Origin: Elusimicrobiota bacterium
Lineage (GTDB): Bacteria; Elusimicrobiota; Elusimicrobia; UBA1565
Reading direction: 5' to 3'
Length of the DNA stretch: 64,000 nucleotides
NCBI GenBank assembly: GCA_043827405.1
Contig: JBDRPD010000083.1
Location: 212,025-276,024, forward strand
Shown: in pieces, positions 50,278 to 64,000 of the stretch
Numbering within the stretch: position 1 is the first letter of the stretch
Layout: each line of letters starts with the position of its first letter
Translations under genes and position numbers: made by a program
The notes under the pieces: generated by a model
What the model was told of the DNA's origin: nothing
Seen by the model: the letters and a program-made list of their open reading frames with translations, nothing else
The model's database searches: none

Positions 50278-51771
50278 CTATTTGCGCAGCTTGAGCATTT
50301 CCAGCCGCTTGCAGACTTGCGTGATCATCGGGCGCCGGAGCTTATAGGCCTGATCGAACATCTGCTCTTCGATTACCCGCTTGTAGTTGCTCTCGATAAA
50401 GCCGCGCTGATCCTGGATCACCGAATAGAAGAAGCGGTTGAATATCTTCTGGTCATCGAGATCCTGCCCGTACTTCTGCCGGATGCGGGCATGATAGCCG
50501 TCCTGCTGGAACTTGAGGAAGAACTCGTCGCTGGTCTTCCAGGTCTCATACATCATTCGCTCCCGCTCCCGCATCGCGGGATAAATCTCGCGGCCCCGTA
50601 CCCAGACGCTGGGGATATAGGGCTCGCCCCGCTTGGCTCCCGCGACGACTTCCTTTTCTACCAGGTCGCTGACCTTTTCGTAGGCGGGATGAAGCTCCAG
50701 GTCGCGCACCCAGTTCTCGATCACCGCTTTGCCCGCCGTCTTGGCGGCGTCGAGCAGGGCTTTGTACTGGCCGGCGACCGGGACCAGGTAGCCGATTACC
50801 CCGTCGGCGGCGGTGCCGGCGGCTTTTTCGTATTCGCCCTTGAAGATATCCTCCACGACGCTGATCGCCTTATACACCATGGAGGGCCCCAGGTTGAATG
50901 CCTTGCCTTTGGGCGAGAGTATCTCCACCGTTCCGAACTCGTCGCCGATCGAATCACGCAGCAGCTTGCCGATCTCGATAAGGGCCTTGTCCTCGTCGGC
51001 GATTCCGGTCTTGGGGCCCCATTGGGTGCAGCGGACATACTCATCGACCACGGGGGGCAGCCGCGCGCGCTCATTGGCGACATCGTCCGCGCTCATTTTC
51101 AGCGCCGCGAGCAGCGCCATGGATGCGGCCTTGCTGTGCTTGTCCTCTTTGGGCAGCAGGCTCATCGAGGTTCGCTTCACCGGCGGAGATTTGTAAGTCC
51201 TCTCCCAGAGCAGCTCGCCGCGATAGTAGAGCCCCGCGCGGAGGGAGACCTCCACGGTTACCTTGGGGCTGATCATTCCGGAGAAGCGGTAGCTGTATTC
51301 GTTTATCTCCAGGGCGATATGCACCGGCGTCTTGTCGGCGTCGCCGAGCCGGCTCGTTGTTTTGAGGTCGTTGAAAAGCTGTGAATACATCATGGTTCCC
51401 GCGGGCTCCAGAGCCTGCCCGAGGGGCACGGTGGCCGTACGCAGAAATCCCTGCTTGCTCTTGGGCTTGCCTTTATAAACATAAGCTCGGGCGGCGTCGG
51501 TGATGAGCAAGGCGGCCGGGATGTCTAGGGGCTCGGCTTCGAGCTGGAGCCCGGAATCCGGGCTGAAGCGGACATTGTCTTTAAGGGGCGCCGAGAGCGA
51601 AATCCCGGATTTACGAATTTGGCGTCTCGCGGCGCGCGAGACATCGGGATCATTGATACCCTTTTGGTCGAGCTCTTGTTCGAGGGCTTCTCCTACGGTA
51701 TCCTGCGCCGCCAGCGGCGCGGCCAGCGGCAGCGCGATTGCGAACGCGCAAAGCAGGGAAATGGATGTCAT
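50278..51771 (-). CDS. Hypothetical exported protein
   Basis: Signal peptide ending PLAA; 497 aa; start overlaps the upstream ankyrin gene stop. Confidence 0.6.
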   Translation of the reverse strand: MTSISLLCAFAIALPLAAPLAAQDTVGEALEQELDQKGINDPDVSRAARRQIRKSGISLSAPLKDNVRFSPDSGLQLEAEPLDIPAALLITDAARAYVYKGKPKSKQGFLRTATVPLGQALEPAGTMMYSQLFNDLKTTSRLGDADKTPVHIALEINEYSYRFSGMISPKVTVEVSLRAGLYYRGELLWERTYKSPPVKRTSMSLLPKEDKHSKAASMALLAALKMSADDVANERARLPPVVDEYVRCTQWGPKTGIADEDKALIEIGKLLRDSIGDEFGTVEILSPKGKAFNLGPSMVYKAISVVEDIFKGEYEKAAGTAADGVIGYLVPVAGQYKALLDAAKTAGKAVIENWVRDLELHPAYEKVSDLVEKEVVAGAKRGEPYIPSVWVRGREIYPAMRERERMMYETWKTSDEFFLKFQQDGYHARIRQKYGQDLDDQKIFNRFFYSVIQDQRGFIESNYKRVIEEQMFDQAYKLRRPMITQVCKRLEMLKLRK

Positions 51772-52667
51772 GTCTCCTCCAGCAATTCGGCCGCCGCCTC
51801 ATGCCCCGCGGCTTTGGCCTGGCTGAGCGCGTTCTCGCCCCGGATATCCTTGGCCTGAATGTCGGCGCCGTTTTCCAGCAGCAGGCGGACGGTATTCGTA
51901 TGGCCGGCGCGCGCGGCCAGGATCAGGGGCGTCTGGTCGGCGCCGTTTTTGGGATCGATCCGCGCGCCGCGCTCCAGGAGCACCTTTACGATCCGCGTCC
52001 GGCCCAGCGCCGCCGCCCAGTGCAGAGGGGTCTCGTCGCCCAGCCGCCCGTCGACATCCTTGCCCGCGTCAAGCAGCCGGCGGACGAGGAATACATTATT
52101 GGACTCGATCGCCGACATCAGGGACGCGCGGGTGAGCAGGAAGATGGTGATAGCGCGTACTCCTTGATACAGGATCAGCACCAGCAGGGCATAGGGGATG
52201 AGTATAAGCAGCATGCCGATAACCGGCAGGCAGAGAAATATCCGCCAGGTTCCCGGCGAGCCCGGACCGAGCAGCAGCCAGGCAGCAAGGAGCAGCCCCG
52301 CGGTGAGCAGGGCCAGGCGCGCGCGGGACATGACCTTAAAGCAGAGGGGAACGAGGAAGAAACCCAAGGTGAGCAGGGCTGTTCCCGAGGCGGTCCGGAA
52401 TCCCGTAAACGGCAGCCACCAGAGCGGCGCCAGCGCCGCGGCAAAATAGACCGCGGCCTTCCACTGCGGTCCGTCGATGCGGTCCCAGAACTTTTGCATC
52501 AGCCGATGGACATCGCCGCCGCGGGCGGCGCAGGCCGCCGTCGCCGCGGCCAACAGCACCGGTACCGACCAGGGGGTAAGGAGCGCGAGATAGGGCGTGA
52601 GGATGAGCAGGGCGTAGCCGCAGATCACGACCTGAAAGGCGAAGCGCTCGACCCAGCCCAAACTCAT
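51768..52667 (-). CDS. Membrane protein with C-terminal ankyrin repeats
   Basis: Hydrophobic N-terminal half; ETPLHWAA, QTPLILAA, LLENGAD. Confidence 0.82.
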   Translation of the reverse strand: MSLGWVERFAFQVVICGYALLILTPYLALLTPWSVPVLLAAATAACAARGGDVHRLMQKFWDRIDGPQWKAAVYFAAALAPLWWLPFTGFRTASGTALLTLGFFLVPLCFKVMSRARLALLTAGLLLAAWLLLGPGSPGTWRIFLCLPVIGMLLILIPYALLVLILYQGVRAITIFLLTRASLMSAIESNNVFLVRRLLDAGKDVDGRLGDETPLHWAAALGRTRIVKVLLERGARIDPKNGADQTPLILAARAGHTNTVRLLLENGADIQAKDIRGENALSQAKAAGHEAAAELLEET

Positions 52668-52724: not shown

Positions 52725-54179
52725 TCAGCGGCGGTGCTTGCGGCGGCCGTGCTTGTTGCGGCGGTTCTTTTGCTTCTTGGGGGTGCGGGCGGATTGTTCA
52801 TAGACCGCGTGGGTGGAGGATGTCGCGGGGGCCTGCGCTATTTGGGTGTTGCGCCTTCCGCCTTCCATAAGGAAACCCTCGACGCCGACGCGGTCGGCCA
52901 GGGTATGGTCGTCGACGAAGGGGTTGCGGTTGCCTTGGTACTCTTCGACCAGATCATTGCGCCGCAGCTCGAAGGCGTCCGGGGGAAATTCGCGGTTCCA
53001 GCGCAGCATCAGCTCGATGCGGCTGTTCCAGAAGTGCTGGACGGCGTCGCCCGGCAGGATGGCGCGGTCGCTGTAGCGCATGAAGAAATAGAGCATGCTG
53101 CGCGCTACCCGGCCCTTCACGGTGTTGGGCGGTTCGAAGTAGCCGCCGCCGAGCTTGGCGCCGGCGTTGTTTTTGTACTCGATAAGGTGGTCGGGCACCT
53201 CGCCGAAGGGGTAGCGGCTGCGCGATGAGTTGGGATGGGCGAAGGTCGCCATCAGGTGGTGCAGGTCGGAGCGCATGGGGATGCGCTGCTTGAAATAGGA
53301 CTGAGGCCAGAGGTGCTCGACGTTCATGCCGTCGCGGTCGACATGGCCGTCGCCGTTGGCGTCCTCGCGCGAGTTGTAGCGCGAGCCGTCGCCGCTGGTG
53401 CCGGGGACGAAGACATTCGAGTAGGCGGCGACCACGCCGCGCACCCCGTTTCTCTTGAAATTGTCGGTATTGGAAAAGAGCTCCTTCTTGGCCTCTTTGT
53501 AGCCGTGCTCGCGATAGCCGCGGCCGCTGATCTCATGCAGCTTGCGGGTGAGCTCCCGGCCCGAAAGATCCTGGACCGGCGCCAGGTAGTCGCGCTTGGG
53601 GGCGGTCTTGGCGGCAATCGCCGCGAGGTCCTGCTCGGTGCGGACGGCGAATGTGCCCTGCTTGTGAACGGCGCCGTCGAAAATATTGTTAAGGCTGCCG
53701 ATGCGGCTGCGGCTGTTGTCGTGGCGGTTGAGGTGCTCGGTCGCTTCACGCAGCTTGTCCAGTTCCGCGGCCTTGGCGTCTTCTTCCTTCTTCTGCGTCT
53801 CGGCGTTCGCGGGCTGGCCCTCGACCGTGGGGGCGTCGGCCACCACGCTGGCCGCGAAATCGGGGACATCCTTCACCTTTTTCGCATGGTCCCGGATCCC
53901 GACCTGCGCGCTCTCGCTGCGGACGGCCCGCATGGAGCGCGTATGCGCCTGGATATTCGGGTTCTTAAGAGCGGGCAAGGTCGGCAGGACCGAGGGGCTG
54001 AAGCTGACGGGAACGAGTCCCTTGATCTTGACCGCCCCGCCTACCGCCGCCCCTGAGGCCCCGGTGGTTACCGGCGCCGCCTGGACTTTGATCGGCGCGA
54101 CCCGGATGGCCGCGTCGGCGCCTTGGGAGAGGAATGCTCCGAGGCAGACGGTCAGCCAGATCCGGGTTCGGTTCGTCAT
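52725..54179 (-). CDS. Secreted endonuclease I (EndA/Bsn family) with long low-complexity N-terminal extension
   Basis: NVEHLWPQS, SDLHHL, NSSRSRYPF, FEP..VKGRVAR..YF, QGNRNPFVD; signal peptide from ATG 54179. Confidence 0.88.
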   Translation of the reverse strand: MTNRTRIWLTVCLGAFLSQGADAAIRVAPIKVQAAPVTTGASGAAVGGAVKIKGLVPVSFSPSVLPTLPALKNPNIQAHTRSMRAVRSESAQVGIRDHAKKVKDVPDFAASVVADAPTVEGQPANAETQKKEEDAKAAELDKLREATEHLNRHDNSRSRIGSLNNIFDGAVHKQGTFAVRTEQDLAAIAAKTAPKRDYLAPVQDLSGRELTRKLHEISGRGYREHGYKEAKKELFSNTDNFKRNGVRGVVAAYSNVFVPGTSGDGSRYNSREDANGDGHVDRDGMNVEHLWPQSYFKQRIPMRSDLHHLMATFAHPNSSRSRYPFGEVPDHLIEYKNNAGAKLGGGYFEPPNTVKGRVARSMLYFFMRYSDRAILPGDAVQHFWNSRIELMLRWNREFPPDAFELRRNDLVEEYQGNRNPFVDDHTLADRVGVEGFLMEGGRRNTQIAQAPATSSTHAVYEQSARTPKKQKNRRNKHGRRKHRR

Positions 54180-54336
54180 CTCTATTAGTGTATAGGGGAA
54201 TGGCCGCCCCGCCCTGAGCAATAGGTCCTTAAATAATCTAGGTCCAATGACCGGTCGGGATTCTTGACATACTGGGCGTCCCATCATAAAGTATCGGGAT
54301 GCGCGTCGTTTTGTCTGTTTTTTCAGCCTTATCGCT

Positions 54337-57300
54337 ATGACGGGAAGCTCCGGAGTGCTGATGCGGGCGCGCTATTTGCTGCTGTTCGGCATCGCCGGAG
54401 GCTTTTCCCAGGTGGTGCAGGCGCTGCTGGGGCGCGAGCTCCTCGTCGTCTTCTACGGCAACGAGCTCAGCCTCGGCCTGTTCTACGGCTTCTGGCTGCT
54501 GTGGATCGCGGTCGGGAGCCGGCTGGCCGGACCGGCGGCGGGCAGGACGGAGCGTCCCGGGACGCTGCTGGCGCTATGCGCCGCCTCGCTGCCGGCGGCG
54601 GCGGCGGGCGCTGTTTTGCTGCTGCGCTTATGCCGGCGCTTTATCGACGTCTCGCCGACCCAGTTTGTGCCGCTGGATCAGCTGGCGCTGTGGAGCCTGC
54701 TGGCCACCTTGCCCGTCGGCCTGCTGATCGGGGCCGCCTTCCCCCTGATCTGCCGCGCGCTCGGCCGCGAGAAAGATGTCTCCGCCGCCTATATCTGGGA
54801 CGCCATCGGCGGTTTGGCCGGCGGCGCCTTGTTTACCTTCCTGCTCGTCGACGCGCTGAGCGTGGTGCGGACATGGGGTTTGCTGAGCGCGGCGCTGGGC
54901 GCGGGGCTGCTCCTGCTGCCGCGGGCCGGCCGCGCCGCCGGGGCCCTGTGGCTTGTCGCCGGGCTTGCCGCCGCCTTGTCGCCGCTGGGCGGGGCGCTGC
55001 AAAAGCGGGCCGATACCCTGCGCTGGAATTCGCTGTTTCCCAGGCTCGAGCTGGTGGAAACCTTCGACACGCCGTATCAGAATATTTCAATTGCCCGGCT
55101 GGGCGCGCAAACCAGCGTTATCGCCGACGGCAAGGTGGCGGCCAGCTTCCCGGCCGGCGTGGTGCCTGCGGTGGAGGCGTCTTTGCTCTATGCCCAGGTT
55201 CCGCGGGCGCGGCGCGTCCTGCTCATCGCCGGCGCGGCCGGCGGGCTGATCCCCGAGCTCCTGGAATATCCGGTCGAGCGCATCGACTGCGTGGAGCCGG
55301 ACCGCGGCGCCTATGAGCGCATCCGCAAGCACCTGCCGCAAGACTGGCGGCGGGCGCTGGCGGATGACAGGGTGCGGGTCCGTTTCGCCGACGGCCGGGT
55401 CTTTATGCGGGAGGCCGTCGGGGAGCGCTACGACCTTATCGTCGCCTTGGTCGGCGACCCGGCGAGCGCGCAGCTCAACCGCTATTTCACCCGTGAGTTC
55501 TATGCCGATGCGAAAGCGGCGCTCGCCCCCGGCGGGGTCTTCGTCACCAAAGTGACTTCGGCCTCGAATTATCTCGGCAAGGAAGTAAAAGGCTACGGCG
55601 CGTCGGTTTACCGGACGCTGGGCGAGGTGTTCGGCGAGGTGCGGGCAACGCCGGGCGACGTCAACTATTTCTTCGCCGCGCGCGGCGCCGGCGTCGTTAC
55701 TCTGGACCCCGGACAGCTGGCGCGCCGCTATATGGGCGTGCGCATGCGGCGGCGCAAGGTGCCGCCCCAGGCCTTCGCCTCGATCCTGCCGCCCGACCGC
55801 GTCGTCTTCGTGGAACAAGCGCTGACGGAAAAAGGCGGCGAGCTCAATACCGACCTGCGGCCCGTCACCTACTACCTCAATATGCTGCTGTGGGGGCGCT
55901 TCTCGGGCTCCGAGTGGGTCGGCGCCTTGGAGGCGATTCGCCGGGCCGGGGTCGGGTTCTTTCTCCTGCCGGCCGTCCTGCTGGTGCTGCTGCGGCTGGG
56001 CTGCGGCCTGACCGAGGAAGATGCGGGGCGCGAAGCGAGATTCTCGGCCGGGCTGGCGCTCGCCGCGCTGGGGTTTTCCGCCATGGCGCTCGAGCTTGTT
56101 CTGCTGTTTACTTATCAGGGCCGGTTCGGATACGTCTACCAAAAGATCGGTCTGCTCAACGGCCTGTTTATGGCGGGGCTGGCGGCGGGCGCGTTCCTGG
56201 CGTCGCGCCGCGGCGGACATGATCCCGGGAAGACCCTCATCGCTGCGGCGGCGGCCGCCGCCGGCTTCGCCTTGCTGCTGCCGGAGCTCCTGGCCGCGGC
56301 GAAGCTGGAAACGGCGTATTGGGCTTTGGTGTTCGCGGCGGGAGCGCTGCCGGGCGCCGGTTTTCCGCCGGCGATTCGGCTCTACAACCGGGACTTGGGC
56401 GATGTGGGCCGGGCCTCCGGGTCGCTTGATGCCGCCGACCATGCGGGCGGAATGTTCGGCGCGCTCATCACCGGCGCCTGCCTGGTGCCGCTCTTCGGGG
56501 TGACGAGCGCCTGCCGCCTGGCGGCCGCGGCGCTCGTCCTGGCCTGTCTGCCGCTGGCGCAGTATGAGGTGCGGCGCGCGGGGCCGGCGCGTGCGCTGCC
56601 GGAGCGTCTGCGTCCCTCGTTCCCCTACCGGCGGACGAGCTGGCTGCTGGCGGCGGCGGTCATGGTGGTGTTCGCCTTGAGCGCCTTGGTGCGCGGCCGG
56701 GCGGCGCCGCCGCTGACCGAGTTTTCGGACGCTGAGCTTATCGCGGTAACCGGCCGCCAGCAGTTTAAGTACGAGCGGGATCCCTTCCCCTACTACCGCG
56801 TATTCGCGGCCGGACAGGTTAAGGACGGAGCGGTATTCAGCACTTTCCCGCATGCGGCCGATATCAAGGGCTTCGCCGGGCCGCTCAACCTCATGCTGAG
56901 TTTGTCGGAGCGCGGTACGGTGCGCGGGCTGCGGCTGCTGGAAAGCGAAGAGACGCCGTCCTATATCGAAGGGATCGGCGACTGGCTCGCGCGCTTTAAC
57001 GGGCTCGACGCCACGCGCGTCCTGCGCTTGGGACGGGAGGTCGATGCGCTCTCCGGCGCTACGGTGACCAGCCGGGCGGTCGTCGACATCGTCAATAAGT
57101 CGGCGCGCTCCGCCGGGAAGCCCGTTTTGGGTCTGGATTTTGCGCGCGTGCCGGCGCGGTCGTGGAGCGCCGGAATGGGGACAATCAAGTTCGGGGTCAT
57201 TGCGGTCTTTCTCGCCCTCTTCTTCCCGGTATTCCTGCGCGGCGGCGAATGGGCGCGGCGGATTTATCTGGCGGCGGCGGTCGGGGTGATGGGGCTGGCC

Positions 57301-57924
57301 TATAATACTTTGTTCTCGCTGATCGATATCGCCAATCTTTCCATGGGGCGCCTGCCCGGCGGCGGAAACCCGGCCTGGTATATGCTGGCCGCCTTTATCG
57401 TTATTACCTCGCTGCTCTGGGGGCAGGTCTACTGCGGCTATATCTGTCCCTTCGGAGCGCTGCAGGAGCTCATCGGAGACTTGGGCCGGCGCCTGGGCTG
57501 GAAGGATAGCGCCATGAGTTGGCTCGACCGTGCCGCGCGCTATATGAAGTATGTGCTGCTGAGCGCGGCGCTATGCGCCTACTGGATTACGCAGGAAACA
57601 GCCTGGATTTCCTTTAATCCCATGCAGCATTTTTTCGCGTTCAAATTTTCCCAAGTGATGGCGGTCCTTGTCATGGTCGTGCTGATCGGGTCGGCTTTCT
57701 ACTTCCGCTTCTGGTGCCGCTACTTCTGTCCCGCCGGCGCTTTCTTCTCGCTGTTCAATAAGCTCGCGCTGGCGCGCCGTTGGGCGCCGGAGCGGCTGGC
57801 GAGCTTATGCGATATCGGCGTGCGCGGGGAATACGACATCGACTGCATCCAGTGCCGGCGCTGCACTTTCCATACGGCGTATGAACGAAAAAGAAAAGAA
57901 AAAAATACGGCCGCGCGACCTTAA
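54337..57924 (+). CDS. Fusion: multi-TM spermidine-synthase-like SAM-fold protein + FMN-binding (flavinylation) domain + NosR/NapH-type 4Fe-4S membrane domain
   Basis: FYGNELS, TPYQNI, ADGRVF, NRYFTREFY, NTDLRP; GFAGP, ETPSY, DALSGATVTS; YCGYICPFGALQE, FWCRYFCPAGA, DCIQCRRC. Confidence 0.85.
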   Translation: MTGSSGVLMRARYLLLFGIAGGFSQVVQALLGRELLVVFYGNELSLGLFYGFWLLWIAVGSRLAGPAAGRTERPGTLLALCAASLPAAAAGAVLLLRLCRRFIDVSPTQFVPLDQLALWSLLATLPVGLLIGAAFPLICRALGREKDVSAAYIWDAIGGLAGGALFTFLLVDALSVVRTWGLLSAALGAGLLLLPRAGRAAGALWLVAGLAAALSPLGGALQKRADTLRWNSLFPRLELVETFDTPYQNISIARLGAQTSVIADGKVAASFPAGVVPAVEASLLYAQVPRARRVLLIAGAAGGLIPELLEYPVERIDCVEPDRGAYERIRKHLPQDWRRALADDRVRVRFADGRVFMREAVGERYDLIVALVGDPASAQLNRYFTREFYADAKAALAPGGVFVTKVTSASNYLGKEVKGYGASVYRTLGEVFGEVRATPGDVNYFFAARGAGVVTLDPGQLARRYMGVRMRRRKVPPQAFASILPPDRVVFVEQALTEKGGELNTDLRPVTYYLNMLLWGRFSGSEWVGALEAIRRAGVGFFLLPAVLLVLLRLGCGLTEEDAGREARFSAGLALAALGFSAMALELVLLFTYQGRFGYVYQKIGLLNGLFMAGLAAGAFLASRRGGHDPGKTLIAAAAAAAGFALLLPELLAAAKLETAYWALVFAAGALPGAGFPPAIRLYNRDLGDVGRASGSLDAADHAGGMFGALITGACLVPLFGVTSACRLAAAALVLACLPLAQYEVRRAGPARALPERLRPSFPYRRTSWLLAAAVMVVFALSALVRGRAAPPLTEFSDAELIAVTGRQQFKYERDPFPYYRVFAAGQVKDGAVFSTFPHAADIKGFAGPLNLMLSLSERGTVRGLRLLESEETPSYIEGIGDWLARFNGLDATRVLRLGREVDALSGATVTSRAVVDIVNKSARSAGKPVLGLDFARVPARSWSAGMGTIKFGVIAVFLALFFPVFLRGGEWARRIYLAAAVGVMGLAYNTLFSLIDIANLSMGRLPGGGNPAWYMLAAFIVITSLLWGQVYCGYICPFGALQELIGDLGRRLGWKDSAMSWLDRAARYMKYVLLSAALCAYWITQETAWISFNPMQHFFAFKFSQVMAVLVMVVLIGSAFYFRFWCRYFCPAGAFFSLFNKLALARRWAPERLASLCDIGVRGEYDIDCIQCRRCTFHTAYERKRKEKNTAARP

Positions 57925-58111
57925 GCTCATCGCGCTGTGCGCCGCGGCTTTGGCTTTGAGCGGAGCCTATATCCATGAATCGCGCGAGCGCGTCGAGCGC
58001 GCCGGCGGCGGCTATCGCCGCGTCGACCTGCGCGCGGTGCAGCGGCTGATCCGCCAAGGCGAGCTCGTCGACCGCGAGGCCATGTATTACCGGACGGAGG
58101 CCCGCCCATGA
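57881..58111 (+). CDS. Small single-TM protein ending in REAMYY (may be the frameshifted tail of the upstream fusion)
   Basis: 76 aa; one TM; RVDLRAVQRLIRQGELVDREAMYY; stop overlaps the radical SAM start (ATGA). Confidence 0.65.
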   Translation: MNEKEKKKIRPRDLKLIALCAAALALSGAYIHESRERVERAGGGYRRVDLRAVQRLIRQGELVDREAMYYRTEARP

Positions 58112-59091
58112 AGCTGGATGTGATCTGCGAGCTTTGTCCCAAGCTCTGCCGCATCCCGGACGGCGCGGCCGGCGACTGCCGGGTGCGCGTCAATATCGGC
58201 GGCAAGCTGCGGACCACGATCTACGGCCGGCCGAGCTCGGTGCATATCGATCCGATCGAGAAGAAGCCGCTGGCGCATTTCCTGCCGCGCTCGCGGACCT
58301 TTTCCATCGCCACCGCCGGCTGCAACCTGCACTGCCGCAACTGCCAGAACTGGCAGCTCTCGCAGCGCGACGGCGCCGAGATGGAGGTGCGCTTCAAGGC
58401 CGAGCCCGAGCGCGTGGTGGCCGAGGCGGTGCGGACCGGATGCTTGTCTATCGCCTATACCTATTCGGACCCGGTCGTTTTCTACGAGTACGTCTACGAC
58501 ACCGCGCGCCTGGCGGCCGAGCGCGGCATCAAGAACGTGCTGGTGACCGCCGGCTATATCAACCGCCAGCCGCTCAAGCGGCTGCTCAAGCATATCGATG
58601 CCAGCAATACCGACCTGAAGTACTTCGACGACGCGCTTTACAAGAAGTACAGCGACGCGGGCCTGCGGCCCGTGCTCGACGCTTTGGTGCTGCAGAAGGA
58701 GGAGAACGTCTGGCTTGAGGTTACGAACCTCGTCATCCCGACCCTCAACGACGATATGGCTGTGGTGCGGCGCATGGCCAAGTGGATGGCGGCCAACCTC
58801 GGCGCTGATACGCCGCTGCACTTCAGCCGTTTTTTCCCGCAGTACCAGATGCAGAATCTCCCGCCCACGCCGGCGGCGACCTTGCTCAATGCCCGGCGCG
58901 AAGCCATGGACGCGGGGCTCAAATACGTCTATGTCGGCAACCTGCACGGCCATGATGCCGAGTCCACGATCTGTCCGACCGACGGCAAGATCCTGGTGCG
59001 GCGGATCGGTTATCTCGTTCCCGAAATTCATATCAAGAACGGCCGCTGCGAATACTGCCGGACCCCCATTGCGGGGAGGTGGAGCTTATGA
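58108..59091 (+). CDS. amrS: AmmeMemoRadiSam system radical SAM enzyme
   Basis: CELCPKLC, DPIEKKPL.HFLP, GCNLHCRNCQNW.LSQ, IAYTYSDP, PLHFSRFFP.Y, YVYVGN. Confidence 0.93.
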   Translation: MKLDVICELCPKLCRIPDGAAGDCRVRVNIGGKLRTTIYGRPSSVHIDPIEKKPLAHFLPRSRTFSIATAGCNLHCRNCQNWQLSQRDGAEMEVRFKAEPERVVAEAVRTGCLSIAYTYSDPVVFYEYVYDTARLAAERGIKNVLVTAGYINRQPLKRLLKHIDASNTDLKYFDDALYKKYSDAGLRPVLDALVLQKEENVWLEVTNLVIPTLNDDMAVVRRMAKWMAANLGADTPLHFSRFFPQYQMQNLPPTPAATLLNARREAMDAGLKYVYVGNLHGHDAESTICPTDGKILVRRIGYLVPEIHIKNGRCEYCRTPIAGRWSL

Positions 59092-59246
59092 AGCAGGACA
59101 AAAATGAAAGAGTGTCGCGCCGGGGCTTTCTGGCCGGCTTGGCGGCGGCGCTCGCCGCCGCCTTCGGCGGCGGGAAACCGGACGCCGGCAAGGAGCGCGA
59201 TCTGCATGAAGCCGATTACTATAAACGTCATGACCTGGCGGGCTAA
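59088..59246 (+). CDS. Unannotated 52-aa twin-arginine (Tat) signal peptide protein
   Basis: Manual translation MKQDKNERVSRRGFLAGLAAALAAAFGGGKPDAGKERDLHEADYYKRHDLAG; GGAGG RBS, ATGA overlap with amrS, stop 4 nt before the next ATG. Confidence 0.8.
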   Translation: MKQDKNERVSRRGFLAGLAAALAAAFGGGKPDAGKERDLHEADYYKRHDLAG

Positions 59247-59250
59247 GGCG

Positions 59251-60759
59251 ATGCGCAGCTGCCTCGCCGCGTTATGGCTTTTGGTCTCGCCCGCCTGCGC
59301 CGGGCCGCAGGACGACGCCGGGGTGCGGCCCAGCGCTCTGGCCGGCTCCTGGTATTTGGGCGACGCGGCGCAGTTGAGAAACCGTCTCGAGCTCTATCTG
59401 GAGCGCGCCGGCACGCCCGAGCTCGACGGCCGTCCGCTGGCGCTGATCTCGCCGCATGCCGGCTACCGCTATTCGGGTCAGGCGGCCGCCTACGGCTTCA
59501 AGGCGCTGCGGGGCCGCGGGATCAAGCGGGTGGTGATCATGGGCTTGAGCCACAGCGAGGGCTATGACGGCGCCTCGGTCCCCGGCTTCACCCACTACGA
59601 GACGCCGCTGGGCAAGGTTAAAGTGGACCGCGCGGCGATCGATAAGCTGCGCAAGCATCCGCTGTTTAGCACCCGGCCGAGCGTACACCGCCGGGAGCAT
59701 TCGCTGGAGATTCAGTTGCCTTTCCTGCAGGTGGTGCTGGATAAGGGCTTCTCGATCGTGCCGGTGGCCTTTGGGAACTTGGCGCCGAAGGACTACCCCG
59801 AGGCGGCGCGGGCGATCAGGGAAATTCTCGATGATGAGACGGTCATCGTCGCGAGCTCGGACTTCATGCACTATGGTTCCCGCTTCGGCTATATGCCGTT
59901 CAAGAAAGAGGCGGCGAAAAATATCGCGGCCTATGACATGCAGGCCGTGGACGCCATCCTGGCCAAGGACTTTAAGGCTTTCTATGCCCGGCAGCAAAAG
60001 ACCGGCAATACCATATGCGGCCGGGTGCCGATCGGGGTGCTGCTGCATCTGTTGGGCGAGGACGCGCATGGGACGCTGGCGCGCTACTACCGCTCGGGCG
60101 AGCTTACGGGCCAATGGGACGGCTCGGTGAGCTATGTCTCGGCGGTCTTTACAGCGGGCAAAAAAGACGCCAAGTTCGCCGGCGCGGAAAGAGACGAGCG
60201 GGAGAAAGCGATGCTCTCGCCCGCCGAGCAGGAGCGCTTGCTGATTTTGGCGCGCTCGACGGTGGACTCCTACGTGCGGCGCAAGCAGGTCCCCGATACC
60301 AAGGTCCTGTCGGCCAAGGTCAAGGCCGGGCTGGAGAAGACCCGGGGGGTTTTCGTGACGCTGAAAAAGCATGGCCAGCTGCGCGGCTGCATCGGCAGCA
60401 TCGTGGGCCGCGAGCCGCTGGTCGACGGAGTGGTGCGCAATGCGGTCAATGCCTGCTCCTTCGACCATCGCTTCCAGCCGGTCACGCCCGATGAGCTCAA
60501 GGATATCGAGCTTGAGGTTTCGGTGCTCAGCCCGTTGCGGAAAGTATCGGGCTATGACCGCATCATCCCGGGCTGGCATGGGGTGCTTTTGACCAAGGGC
60601 CGGCGGCAGGCGGTTTTTCTGCCGCAGGTGGCGATGGAGTTCAACTGGGAAATCGAGGAGACCTTGACCCAGCTGGCGCGCAAGGCGGGGCTGCCGTCCG
60701 ACGGCTGGAAAGAGGGGGCGGAGTTCGAGGTCTTCGAGGCGCAGATTATCCCGGAGTAG
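59251..60759 (+). CDS. Fused AmmeMemoRadiSam protein B (MEMO1-like) + protein A (AMMECR1-like) with N-terminal signal peptide
   Basis: VRPSALAGSWY, PHAGYRYSG, EHSLEIQLPFLQ, SSDFMHYG, TICG; then GVFVTL, LRGCIG, D.RF.PV, EVSVLS, FLPQVA; ATG 59251 gives MRSCLAALWLLVSPACA. Confidence 0.92.
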   Translation: MRSCLAALWLLVSPACAGPQDDAGVRPSALAGSWYLGDAAQLRNRLELYLERAGTPELDGRPLALISPHAGYRYSGQAAAYGFKALRGRGIKRVVIMGLSHSEGYDGASVPGFTHYETPLGKVKVDRAAIDKLRKHPLFSTRPSVHRREHSLEIQLPFLQVVLDKGFSIVPVAFGNLAPKDYPEAARAIREILDDETVIVASSDFMHYGSRFGYMPFKKEAAKNIAAYDMQAVDAILAKDFKAFYARQQKTGNTICGRVPIGVLLHLLGEDAHGTLARYYRSGELTGQWDGSVSYVSAVFTAGKKDAKFAGAERDEREKAMLSPAEQERLLILARSTVDSYVRRKQVPDTKVLSAKVKAGLEKTRGVFVTLKKHGQLRGCIGSIVGREPLVDGVVRNAVNACSFDHRFQPVTPDELKDIELEVSVLSPLRKVSGYDRIIPGWHGVLLTKGRRQAVFLPQVAMEFNWEIEETLTQLARKAGLPSDGWKEGAEFEVFEAQIIPE

Positions 60760-60769
60760 GCGTTAAGCT

Positions 60770-60853
60770 GCTGCTGGGAAGCTGCTTGTGAAAAGCGGCG
60801 CTTCCTTCCCGTAGAGAGCTTAGCCCGTCCGGCGGGAATGCGCCGGGGGCGGG
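60770..60853. repeat. Repeat copy 1 (internally deleted)
   Basis: GGAAGCTGCTTGTGAAAAGCGGCGCTTCCTT joined directly to AGAGAGCTTAGCCCG..GGCGGGAATGCGCC; lacks the central promoter segment. Confidence 0.85.
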
Positions 60854-60870
60854 CGGCTTGGGGCGGAAAC

Positions 60871-62061
60871 TCAGCGCGCCTTGAAGACCCGGCGGAATTT
60901 CCGCCAAGGAAGAGCGCGCACGCAGGAATCGAGCGGCCCCTCGTCATCCGAGAAACTCAGGAGAAAGGCGCGCTCGCTTCCCAGAGCCCTCGCGGCGCGA
61001 GAGAGCGTACGCGCGTGCTCACGGCGCAGGGTCTTGGAGCGCTTGATCTCCACCGGAACAAGACCTTTCGCCCGGCCGAAATCCAAGACCAGGTCGACCT
61101 CGTTGCCGTTGGTGTCTCGATAGAAATAGAGCTCGTAAGGCGCTGCGCGATTGAGCTTCTCCTTCAGGAACTCCAGCAGCATCATGTTCTCGAAGAACGC
61201 CCCGGCCATCGGCCCGGCGCTTAAAGTCTCCGGGGCGGAGTACTTGAGCAGGTACGCCAGCAGGCCGGTATCCGTGAAATACAGTTTCGGACTCTTGACC
61301 ACCCGCTTGCTCAAGTTCCGGGAATAGGGCCGCAGGAGATAGACGATGCGCGTCGTCTCCAAGAGGGAGAGCCAGCGCCGGGCGTTGCTGTGGCTGATGC
61401 CCGCCTCCCGCGATATGCCGTTGAGATTGAGGAGCCCCCCGGCGCGCGCGGCCAAGAGTTCCAGGAAGTCCTGAAACATCGAAAGGTCCTGGACCGAGCG
61501 AATTCGGCGGATATCCCTCTCGAGATAGGTCTGCAGGTAGGATCCATAGTAGTCCGCGGCGTGCACGCCGTGAACGGCGGGGTCCGGATAGAATCCCCGG
61601 AGCATCTGGGCAAAGCAGCCGCTCACCGAACGTTCATGCGGCCCGGGCAGCTCTTCCCAAGAGAAGCCCAGCAGCTCGAAGACCGCCGCCCTCCCGGCAA
61701 GGCTCTCCGTAAGCCCCTGCATAAGCGGGAAGGACTGCGAACCGGTAAGCAGAAAGCGTCCGCAATCGTCGCGGTCGCGGTCGACGGCCGTCTTGATATA
61801 GGACAGGAGTTCCGGCGCGTACTGGATCTCGTCGATGATGGCGCGGCGCCCCGCTTTTTCCAAGAACAGACCGGGGTCCTCCTTGGCGAGTCCCCGGTTG
61901 AGAGCGTCGTCGAGCGACAGCACCTTGTGGCGGGGAAAGGTTTTGGCCAACAGCGTGGATTTTCCGGTCTGCCGCGGTCCCGTCAGGACCACGACCGGGA
62001 ACTGGCTCGCCGCCCGCCTGAGGCGGCTCGCCAGGACGCGGGGAAGGAAGCGCTTGCGCAT
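60871..62061 (-). CDS. AAA_14 ATPase with DUF4143 domain
   Basis: LTGPRQTGKST, IIDEIQYAP, LTGSQ, ESLAGR, TYLERD, KSPKLYFTDTG, EVDLV, EIK; promoter TTGACC-N17-CATAAT 6 nt before ATG 62061. Confidence 0.92.
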   Translation of the reverse strand: MRKRFLPRVLASRLRRAASQFPVVVLTGPRQTGKSTLLAKTFPRHKVLSLDDALNRGLAKEDPGLFLEKAGRRAIIDEIQYAPELLSYIKTAVDRDRDDCGRFLLTGSQSFPLMQGLTESLAGRAAVFELLGFSWEELPGPHERSVSGCFAQMLRGFYPDPAVHGVHAADYYGSYLQTYLERDIRRIRSVQDLSMFQDFLELLAARAGGLLNLNGISREAGISHSNARRWLSLLETTRIVYLLRPYSRNLSKRVVKSPKLYFTDTGLLAYLLKYSAPETLSAGPMAGAFFENMMLLEFLKEKLNRAAPYELYFYRDTNGNEVDLVLDFGRAKGLVPVEIKRSKTLRREHARTLSRAARALGSERAFLLSFSDDEGPLDSCVRALPWRKFRRVFKAR

Positions 62062-62104
62062 GTTGATATTATGCAAATTCGCCTTTGAAAGGTCAAATTA
62101 CATT

Positions 62105-62243
62105 GCTGATAGGAAGCTGCTTGTGAAAAGCGGCGCTTCCTTTCCTGAATTCGCTCTCTCGACGGATCATCAACGGCCTTCCATTCTGTAGAGCTTCGCT
62201 CGCGCGGCGGTAATGCGCCAGGGGAGGGGAGAAATCTGGGGAA
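62105..62243. repeat. Repeat copy 2 (~140 bp)
   Basis: GCTGATAGGAAGCTGCTTGTGAAAAGCGGCGCTTCCTTTCCTGAATTCGCTCTC...GAGAAATCTGGGGAA. Confidence 0.92.
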
Positions 62244-62424
62244 AGGGGCGGCGGTGGTGAGACCAAGATATATAATAAGGGATTATCATTAATCTTGACC
62301 CGATCCTATTATTGGACACTATGGTCAAGACAGCTTCGACAAGTCGGACGTTCTGGAGCGTGGGAAAGGAAAAGAAGGACACGCGACCACCACTTTCGCA
62401 ATCATATCTTCGACCCCGTTCAAG

Positions 62425-63573
62425 TCAGAACTTGAGAGTGCTCATCTGGGCGAGCGGCAGGGCTGAGATCCTCTTGGCAAGTTCGAACGTTCGGGTCCCG
62501 GGATAGACGACCCACAAGTGCTTCAACCGCAAGTCCTTCATGACCACATGCATGGACTTGGTCGTTGTGGGAGAGTCGACGTATTTCATCTCGAAGCCGT
62601 AGCGCCGTCCGCCGCGCACGACAAGCAGGTCGAGCTCGGCCCCTCCGTGGGTCTTGTAGAAGTAGGCGTCCCGGTCCGCGTCCAGATGCCGGATGACCTC
62701 CTCGAGCGCGAACCCCTCCCACGAGAACCCCAGCGCCGGATGGGATTGAAGCTCGCGCGCGGTCCTCAAGCGCAGGAGCGCGTGCAGGAGCCCGGTGTCT
62801 CGGAAGTACAGCTTCGGCGCCTTGACCAGTCTCTTGCCCAGGTTCTCGAACCAAGGCTGGAGCTGGCGGATCATGTAGGAGCCCGTGAGGATGTCGAGGT
62901 AGCGCTGGGCCGTGGCCTCCTGGGTTTTCATGGATCTTGCCAGCGCCGCGGCATTCCACGTCTGGCCCTGGAGATGCGCCGCCATCATCCAGAAGCGTCT
63001 CAGCGCGGTTGCCGGCACCCGCACGCCTAGGGCCGGGAGGTCCCGCTCCAGGTGGGTCCGGATGAAGTCCAGCCGCCAGCGATAGCTGTCCTCCTCGCTG
63101 CGCGCCAGGTAGGAGTTGGGAAGCCCCCCACGCCGCCATAGGCGGGCGTCGTTTCGGACACCAACCTCCTCCGACGTGAAGCCCTCCATCTCGACATGGG
63201 TCACCCGCCCGGCTAGGGACTCCGACACGCCTCGGACCAGTTCCGGGGAGGCGCTCCCCAGCAGGAGGAACCTCGCAGGCAGAGGCTTGCGATCGGCCAG
63301 GACGCGCAGGAAGGGAAAGAGCGCGGGCTCGCGCTGGCACTCGTCGATGACCACGAGCCCCCTCTTGTCCCGCAGGTTCAAGGCCAGCGTCTCTCGGTCC
63401 AGCGGCGTTTCGGGGTCCTCGAGATCAAAATACGCGGTGCGCGCACGCCGAGCCAAGCGCCTGGCCAGGGAGGTCTTCCCGCACTGCCGCGGCCCGAGCA
63501 GAAGCGTGACGGGGGCGCGCTTGAGAGCTCTTTCCAGCCGGTTCTCCAAGGTCTTTCGGGGAATCCATCCCAT
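62425..63573 (-). CDS. AAA_14 ATPase with DUF4143 domain (divergent second member)
   Basis: LGPRQCGKTS, VIDECQ, LGSAS, ESLAGR, LERD, KAPKLYFRDTG, ELDL, FEMK; promoter TTGAAA-N17-TAAAAT 7 nt before ATG 63573. Confidence 0.92.
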   Translation of the reverse strand: MGWIPRKTLENRLERALKRAPVTLLLGPRQCGKTSLARRLARRARTAYFDLEDPETPLDRETLALNLRDKRGLVVIDECQREPALFPFLRVLADRKPLPARFLLLGSASPELVRGVSESLAGRVTHVEMEGFTSEEVGVRNDARLWRRGGLPNSYLARSEEDSYRWRLDFIRTHLERDLPALGVRVPATALRRFWMMAAHLQGQTWNAAALARSMKTQEATAQRYLDILTGSYMIRQLQPWFENLGKRLVKAPKLYFRDTGLLHALLRLRTARELQSHPALGFSWEGFALEEVIRHLDADRDAYFYKTHGGAELDLLVVRGGRRYGFEMKYVDSPTTTKSMHVVMKDLRLKHLWVVYPGTRTFELAKRISALPLAQMSTLKF

Positions 63574-63859
63574 ACCTTGAATTTTACCATGCAGACTGGT
63601 AATTTTCAAGAATATATTCTATCCGATCTCGCCCCACGGATAGCGGCCCAATGAGAAGCCAACCGGCAAGATGCTGCCGTTCGGCAAGCTAATCGGCGAC
63701 ATGATGCCGTTCAGGAAATAGACCGCCCTGGCATCATGACCATTCCCCTCAATCCCTTCCGCCCTCGGACCGATACGAAATCGCTCTCATCCATGAAAAG
63801 AACAGGAAGCCATTTGACCCAGCGAGCCAAATGGCTTTCTCCATTCTGGAATTAGCTTG

Positions 63860-64000
63860 GCTGATAGGAAGCTGCTTGTGAAAAGCGGCGCTTCCTTTCC
63901 TGAATTCGCTCTCTTGACGGATCATCAACGGCCTTCCATCCTGAAGAGAGCTTAGCCCGCGCGGCGGGAATGCGCCAGGGGCGGGGAGAAATCTGGGGAA
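63860..64000. repeat. Repeat copy 3 (~140 bp, runs to window edge)
   Basis: Near-identical to 62105-62243; contains TTGACG-N17-CATCCT on the + strand. Confidence 0.92.

Follow-up and report, generated by a model that had tools for sequence, protein, structure and literature searches.

A split AmmeMemoRadiSam locus of an Elusimicrobiota bacterium, with a candidate Tat escort and a candidate membrane docking tail for its radical SAM enzyme

The window analysed here is a 64,000-nucleotide stretch of an Elusimicrobiota genome (assembly GCA_043827405.1, contig JBDRPD010000083.1). It contains an operon in which a 1195-aa membrane protein, a 76-aa ORF, amrS, a 52-aa twin-arginine (Tat) peptide and an amrB-amrA fusion follow one another in that order (Table 1). 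ATGA overlaps were found at both junctions flanking amrS, which is preceded by GGAGG, as the Tat ORF is by GGAG. The window's AmrS scored 376.5 bits against TIGR04337 (cut-off 220) over profile positions 12-333 of 349, and the AmrB-AmrA fusion scored 222 bits against TIGR04336 and 164.3 bits against TIGR04335, both above the cut-off; a Sec-like hydrophobic stretch at the N-terminus of the fusion was recognised by eye and from hydropathy, with no predictor. Divergent from the operon lie an endonuclease I with a long N-terminal extension and an ankyrin-repeat membrane protein (52725-54287 and 51768-52667 (-), respectively). Near-identical translated stretches are common to three short ORFs (60746-60907, 62093-62266, 63749-63928 (-)); an intergenic DNA element appears to be repeated around a pair of similar P-loop ATPase genes (60871-62076 and 62425-63609), which probably belong to the AAA/DUF4143 family.

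Table 1. Features of the amrS operon, with positions counted from the first nucleotide of the window.
Feature	Positions	Strand	Basis
1195-aa membrane protein, candidate electron donor	54337..57924	+	Pfam PF01564, PF04205 and PF12801 over cut-off
76-aa tail protein ORF	57881..58111	+	one TM helix, conserved helix and EAMYY
REAMYYR motif of the tail protein	58073..58093	+	sequence
Headless amrS, 327 aa	58108..59091	+	TIGR04337; no signal peptide
52-aa twin-arginine peptide ORF, candidate export escort	59088..59246	+	TIGR01409
HEADYYK motif of the Tat peptide	59205..59225	+	sequence
AmrB (Memo)-AmrA (AMMECR1) fusion, 502 aa	59251..60759	+	TIGR04336 and TIGR04335

The first-pass annotation had reported that the two small ORFs flanking amrS share an EAxYY motif near their ends and that AmrS itself starts abruptly. 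Both motifs were confirmed in the sequence, and the first CxxC of AmrS lies 6 residues in, in line with the late start of its profile match. EAx[FY][YW] occurs 38 times in the 8.67 million six-frame residues of the genome, and just two of the 9,949 Met-started ORFs of 45-100 aa carry it within their last 20 residues, namely the pair flanking amrS; its presence at the end of both is not due to chance. A frameshift or assembly error was rejected as the source of this layout, since it was found again in three family relatives and in other phyla, with variable spacing and frame, and since a second-strain contig from another study, spanning 57500-58871, shows 37 substitutions, zero gaps and the same frames. 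The split arrangement is real and conserved.

AmrS sequences were collected from 41 relatives, 80 genome loci, 80 metagenome loci and phylum samples, giving 229 distinct proteins, 76 of them headless; 11 duplicate or truncated loci and 8 partial sequences and exact duplicates were left out before counting. The first-pass annotation had supposed that AmrS proteins usually begin with an EAx[FY][YW] segment, and the alignment of N-termini bears this out. The strict motif EAx[FYWH][YW] was found 13-16 residues ahead of the first Cys in 82 of 152 AmrS of the ordinary, cis-type form, and an aromatic pair at the same position in 140 of them, while none of the 76 headless proteins has the strict motif in frame ahead of the first Cys. 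Tat or hydrophobic leaders are common on cis-type AmrS, and the active-site residues are common to both forms; the radical SAM CxxxCxxC cysteines (C72, C76 and C79) were invariant in 60 headless sequences. AmrA and AmrB adjoin headless amrS in 30 of the 31 loci with wide flanks. The window's genome also encodes a second AmrS (L018, G000:C53:142610-143653), a canonical cis-type protein that fits TIGR04337 far better, at 617.5 bits.

Two kinds of cis-type head deserve separate description. Four proteins (L019, L253, L262 and L275) carry a CxxCH-like motif between the leader and the first CxxC, which resembles a heme c site and suggests attachment of heme c in the periplasm; such leaders would fit a periplasmic enzyme. 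In L175, L185 and L218 (also L176, L181 and L217) the head consists of a membrane helix, a further helix and LSLxxAxYW. The amrS genes of L175, L185 and L218 sit directly after an FMN and/or Fe-S membrane gene and represent an unsplit counterpart of the window's layout, although the tree does not place them as sister to the headless AmrS.

Three lineages of headless AmrS were distinguished. Lineage A comprises the window, Chromatiales-like Gammaproteobacteria, a myxobacterium and others, and has the tail ORF upstream of amrS and a Tat peptide that mostly carries EAx[FY]Y; the nearest named relative of the window is the Elusimicrobiota MAG L031, at 80% identity. Lineage B (Planctomycetota and Lentisphaerota) has no upstream ORF, and its Tat peptide is motif-less and ends in W-x-Gly. 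Lineage C was met at 5 metagenome loci, where the Tat peptide ends in xA[ML]FW plus basic residues, the only motif copy seen, and no tail was found within the available flanks (0-7 kb). Two motif-bearing donors, tail and Tat peptide, were found in lineage A only. Headless AmrS of the other two lineages scored 381.4 and 374.9 bits against TIGR04337 (cut-off 220). In the tree all headless AmrS lie on one side of a weakly supported branch (FastTree 0.59; SH-aLRT 55), and lineages A and B group together with an SH-aLRT of 97; the IQ-TREE run comprised 76 of the 229 rows. A single origin of all headless AmrS is allowed by this topology.

The 1195-aa protein combines a spermidine-synthase-like domain with an FMN-binding domain and has 16 hydrophobic segments, a flavinylation motif DxxSGAT at 903, CX3CP at 1033 and 1127, and a C-terminal CxxCxxC. 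It thus has every feature of the NosR/RdhC type (an FMN-binding domain with the flavinylation Thr motif, two CX3CP and several TM helices), and the genome encodes ApbE. Against the NosR equivalog NF046105 it scored 78.7 bits, with a cut-off of 1000; it would work like NosR, but is not NosR. Homologues, mostly of the spermidine-synthase-like part, lie close to amrS at 49 of 76 headless loci and at 51 of 153 cis-type ones; that the protein might help to supply SAM or to remove products is speculation.

The 76-aa tail protein, with a helix conserved among aligned tail ORFs (R46, D49, G60, L62) and with EAMYY, bears no cofactor motif. At Planctomycetota-type loci the tail is the C-terminus of a NosR/RdhC-like FMN/Fe-S protein and is kept at a distance from the amrS start because that protein lies downstream of amrBA. 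Among 8 lineage-B genomes examined, the tail was fused in five and a separate ORF in one; in another the big protein is interrupted by an assembly gap, and in G232 the tail is absent. The tail profile matched 147 longer database proteins. Among the 120 matches listed, 119 end in the motif, nearly all have Fer4_5 plus FMN_bind or Spermine_synth, and radical SAM proteins are absent; a search of the ESM Atlas with the tail gave no named family. On the N-termini of cis-type AmrS the profile reached at least 8 bits in 16 of 151 real and 1 of 3,020 shuffled sequences, each match being weak individually, and hhalign of the tail with six cis-type heads gave a probability of 91.1, which we discount, the six having been picked by eye. 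Where the first-pass annotation had envisaged a membrane anchor/electron donor, the 76-aa ORF is the split-off tail of the candidate electron donor, with which other lineages have it fused.

Tail and headless AmrS coincide genome by genome. In the Chromatiales-like sample the tail was found in 24 of 201 genomes and an AmrS of at least 60% identity in the same 24, all headless (15 of these N-termini being new to the AmrS set); the next-best AmrS had at most 49% identity, and the six that were read are all cis-type. In the Planctomycetota sample strong tail matches occurred in 5 of 201 genomes, 4 of them outside the profile's own sequences, and these are the same 5 that have a headless AmrS. N-termini were read there for 75 of 171 AmrS (9 of the 55 fetched being unreadable), and the other 70 are cis-type; three weak tail matches in this sample (E 0.005-0.008) were chance on inspection. 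Within the window's own phylum the tail was found in 2 of 201 genomes, the window's (G000) and G049, the same two with headless AmrS, G049 being the sole other headless case among the 30 loci and 5 extra regions read. The tail profile matched 0 of 153 cis-type loci, though 51 of these have a big-protein homologue nearby. The expected relation between loss of the cis motif and a motif-bearing ORF in trans is thus upheld (24 of 24, 5 of 5 and 2 of 2 genomes), with G232 and L276 as exceptions. These counts describe a tight linkage and overstate independence, because these organisms are relatives of one another and the genes are passed on together as an operon.

The exceptions bear directly on the proposal that AmrS receives its segment in trans, and they argue against it, in that both have a headless AmrS with no detectable donor. 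L276 shows no donor gene within its flanks, and G232 (locus L145) has a motif-less Tat peptide and no tail match. At about 3720-3855 of L145 the big protein stops after the first tail residues and lacks the FMN and Fe-S parts; decay of the system, or an incomplete assembly, is possible. A donor-less Planctomycetota-type headless AmrS was also considered and rejected, its tail having been located beyond the 5-kb flank. In a sample of 120 genomes from the phylum around G440 the tail-less lineage was not found, and the only other strong AmrS match was cis-type.

Sequence and fold searches of the PDB yielded no AmrS structure, the nearest solved fold being that of the PFL activating enzyme (TM 0.61 by query). 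Modelled as a complex, AmrS and tail residues 31-76 reached a score of 0.85, the best of 3 controls reaching 0.01, a result to be read with the caveat that the two halves of a split gene may pass because they resemble the unsplit protein. At least 88% of contacts were reproduced between runs, and partner pLDDT was at least 70; the mark for such models, which solved complexes reached in 116 of 157 cases and mismatched pairs in 2 of 215, is roughly valid with our own alignments. In the model, tail E66 and A67 contact AmrS 34-36 and E127, and Y69 and Y70 contact AmrS 6-9 and P155, these four tail residues making the contacts of lowest error. The contacts agree in register with the two short strands (K10-E11 and Y15-K17) formed by the cis segment in a model of cis-type AmrS (pLDDT 96.6). 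All aligned AmrS have E127 and 85-100% have P155, so that the predicted pocket is family-wide. An acidic residue at interface position 23 was found in 99% of 68 tail-lineage AmrS, 10% of 153 cis-type AmrS and none of 6 from the tail-less lineage; a partner for this residue could be the near-invariant R46 of the tail. Columns specific to the tail lineage were only weakly enriched at the interface (4 of 12, p = 0.056).

The first-pass annotation had supposed that both small ORFs supply the missing segment to AmrS as a docking strand. For the upstream ORF this is well supported by the distribution, the complex model and the conserved pocket, and we hold with good confidence that the tail would dock on AmrS; for the Tat peptide the evidence is homology. 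The single strand did not survive, the docking element in the models being a helix with two short strands. A point against supply in trans is the model of headless AmrS by itself, in which the monomer is already well folded (pLDDT 90.1).

Taken together, we estimate a probability of about 0.6 that the operon encodes a split, exported form of AmmeMemoRadiSam whose AmrS would be escorted by the Tat peptide and then docked at the outer membrane face, with export, hand-over and electron supply as the parts that we infer. An ancestral exported AmrS would have carried a targeting sequence (a Tat signal or a membrane helix) and EAx[FY][YW] at its own N-terminus, and this head would have become separate genes in the window's lineage. 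Headless AmrS would then fold with its Fe-S clusters in the cytoplasm and bind the EADYY segment of the Tat peptide, and probably its hydrophobic-x-Gly end as well, before being exported as a Tat hitchhiker. On the outer face, the tail helix with EAMYY would fill the AmrS groove that the cis segment occupies in ordinary AmrS. So docked, AmrS would have the FMN domain of the big protein beside it as reductant of its radical SAM cluster, with the secreted AmrB-AmrA close by.

AmrS is without a signal and would therefore need a carrier to reach the tail. The locus presents the pattern of a hitchhiker pair, with a twin-arginine signal on one partner, none on AmrS, and TatC encoded in the genome; Tat hitchhiking is established for heterodimers (PMC10924467, in the part available). 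The sequence of the 52-aa Tat peptide ends in EADYY and a hydrophobic-x-Gly C-terminus, and its motif matched that of the tail in a profile comparison with hhalign (probability 85.7, 19 columns). The ESM Atlas returned Tat-signal look-alikes for the peptide. It is probable that the Tat peptide binds and carries AmrS. In lineage C it seems plainly to be the detached AmrS head. Tat peptides were recovered from 67 headless loci; 9 of the 76 gave none by pattern, some lying at contig ends and one being read through into amrB. At L035:1459-3252 the Tat peptide is continuous in one frame with amrB-amrA, either a natural fusion or a sequence error.

How the Tat peptide would hold AmrS bears on the choice between exchange and simple docking. 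Both the motif and the hydrophobic-x-Gly end were found in 24 of the 67 peptides, the end only in 26, the motif only in 15 and a near variant of the motif only in 2. The end is thus present in 50; all 17 peptides without it have the motif or its near variant, and none lacks both, where 6.6 would be expected if the two were independent, a difference inflated by kinship. Among 120 listed database homologues 114 are without the motif and 118 end in Gly, and several peptides of the window's lineage have kept HxLAG where the motif has decayed. These patterns suggest two partly redundant grips on AmrS. An alternative is that the tail sits permanently in the groove while the Tat peptide carries or anchors AmrS at a second site through its hydrophobic-x-Gly end, its EAxFY being a leftover or a weak extra contact, so that both peptides may sit on AmrS together. 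The 26 peptides with that end only, the Gly-terminal database homologues and the retained HxLAG all favour such docking without exchange; the absence of any peptide without both features and the lineage-C peptides, in which only the motif follows the signal, speak against it, and we regard it as unlikely.

Returning to the escort-and-docking reading, a swap of AmrS between membrane anchor and Tat carrier, as had been proposed, does not stand as a general rule, 26 of the 67 Tat peptides being motif-less; the lineage-B peptide cannot compete for the groove through EAx[FY][YW] because it has no such motif. Where both donors exist, they are predicted to meet AmrS on opposite sides of the membrane, which points instead to a one-way hand-over. 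This is the simplest course because a lineage-A peptide would have to be bound ahead of export and the tail only afterwards, and we favour it only tentatively over a reversible switch. That tail and Tat peptide displace each other in one groove in the window's lineage is likewise conceivable, at somewhat less than even odds. A stronger version is slightly more doubtful again: the Tat peptide would complete the AmrS fold for export and then be displaced in the same groove by the tail of the flavinylated donor. SAM or its products may then be dealt with by the spermidine-synthase-like and transporter-like parts of that donor, and the whole would amount to donor-strand exchange as a means of enzyme trafficking and to radical SAM chemistry in the periplasm.

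It could also be that AmrS is not exported at all and stays at the inner face, both peptides being alternative membrane anchors or regulators. SAM and low-potential electrons, on which radical SAM enzymes depend, are normally cytoplasmic, and the supply of SAM outside the cytoplasm is a difficulty for an export model. Furthermore, the Tat peptide stayed below the cut-off of Pfam TAT_signal, although it scored 20.3 bits against TIGR01409 (cut-off 16.7), and the Fe-S end of the big protein is presumably cytoplasmic, by analogy with NosR. On the other side, no part of the peptide is better conserved in the alignment than the twin-arginine motif, AmrB-AmrA has a signal-like start, and four cis-type AmrS have the CxxCH-like motif in their leaders. 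Charge bias also places the tail outside: in 115 of 119 fused tails, with none reversed, and in 27 of 35 stand-alone tails, with 4 reversed and 4 even, more Lys and Arg precede the last helix than follow it. The tail motif is accordingly predicted from sequence to lie on the outer membrane face; the FMN domains of PceC and NosR face outward (PMC5928378, in the part available). We consider retention of AmrS in the cytoplasm improbable.

Less likely still is that the Tat peptide is a substrate, with AmrS recognising EAxYY as a leader and modifying the C-terminal Gly. The PFL activating enzyme acts on a Gly in a peptide, and a terminal Gly is frequent in Tat peptides; however, an invariant target Gly was not found (17 of the 67 peptides lack a terminal one), no such peptide follows amrS at 30 sampled loci or at further cis-type loci, and the active-site residues are the same in cis-type AmrS. 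Finally, the small ORFs could scarcely be functionless debris of a frameshifted or duplicated amrS start, even though the upstream ORF abuts amrS directly, as after a frameshift, and cis-type AmrS with helix-motif heads follow FMN/Fe-S genes at some loci, since the ORFs are conserved across several phyla with variable spacing and frame, the tail is retained even when moved to the end of a downstream protein, amrS has its own ribosome-binding site, and the second strain agrees.

If the escort-and-docking reading is true, the addition of a peptide tag in trans would offer a minimal and transplantable means of exporting and positioning an Fe-S enzyme, and an AmmeMemoRadiSam system would gain a probable reductant and a probable location. 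AmmeMemoRadiSam is a widespread family of putative function, and the human relatives of AmrA and AmrB are AMMECR1 and MEMO1. No reaction of AmrS was found in the literature searched. Nor was a description of split or exported AmrS found in a search of literature with few subscription journals, which included the accessible parts of PMC10924467, PMC4075521, PMC5928378, PMC9431212, PMC8238504 and bioRxiv 2024.03.13.584918; the main text of the flavinylation papers does not mention radical SAM, spermidine, AMMECR or Memo.

The locus resembles AmmeMemoRadiSam as defined by TIGR04337 (AmrS), TIGR04336 (AmrB/Memo) and TIGR04335 (AmrA/AMMECR1), which are adjacent and all over their cut-offs. It differs in that the window's AmrS lacks profile positions 1-11, that AmrB and AmrA are fused behind a signal-like start, and that the set is extended by two small donor genes and a NosR/RdhC-like protein. 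A role in RNA modification has been proposed for archaeal AMMECR1 (PMC4075521, in the part available), which fits a periplasmic form poorly. The Tat hitchhikers, of which NiFe hydrogenases and formate dehydrogenases are examples, likewise have a signal-less, cofactor-bearing protein beside a twin-arginine partner (PMC10924467, same portion). Unlike theirs, the carrier here is a peptide of 45-70 aa with no folded domain or cofactor, and it seems to be the passenger's own detached N-terminus. The small subunit of the Desulfovibrio FeFe hydrogenase may be a parallel to such a small Tat carrier.

As regards the proposed electron route, PceA/PceB/PceC and NosZ/NosR would share with our locus an Fe-S enzyme at the outer face, a small membrane anchor and a covalent-FMN membrane protein with two CX3CP, for which a role in electron transfer has been proposed (PMC5928378, same portion). 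In contrast to the PceB-type anchor, the one at our locus duplicates part of the enzyme itself and in many cases forms the end of the donor, and the donor, unlike PceC and NosR, has an extra spermidine-synthase-like domain. Donor-strand complementation and exchange are known from chaperone-usher pili. There is no Ig fold and no polymer here, and headless AmrS is predicted to fold alone, but in both cases a fold-incomplete protein would receive an element from one partner and perhaps later from another, and the filling of the groove by the tail is supported by the model. AmmeMemoRadiSam genes, hitchhiking, anchors with flavinylated donors and donor-strand exchange are thus each known elsewhere, separately; what this analysis adds is the fusion of the tail to a candidate donor, the genome-level co-occurrence, the three lineages, the complex model and the counter-examples.
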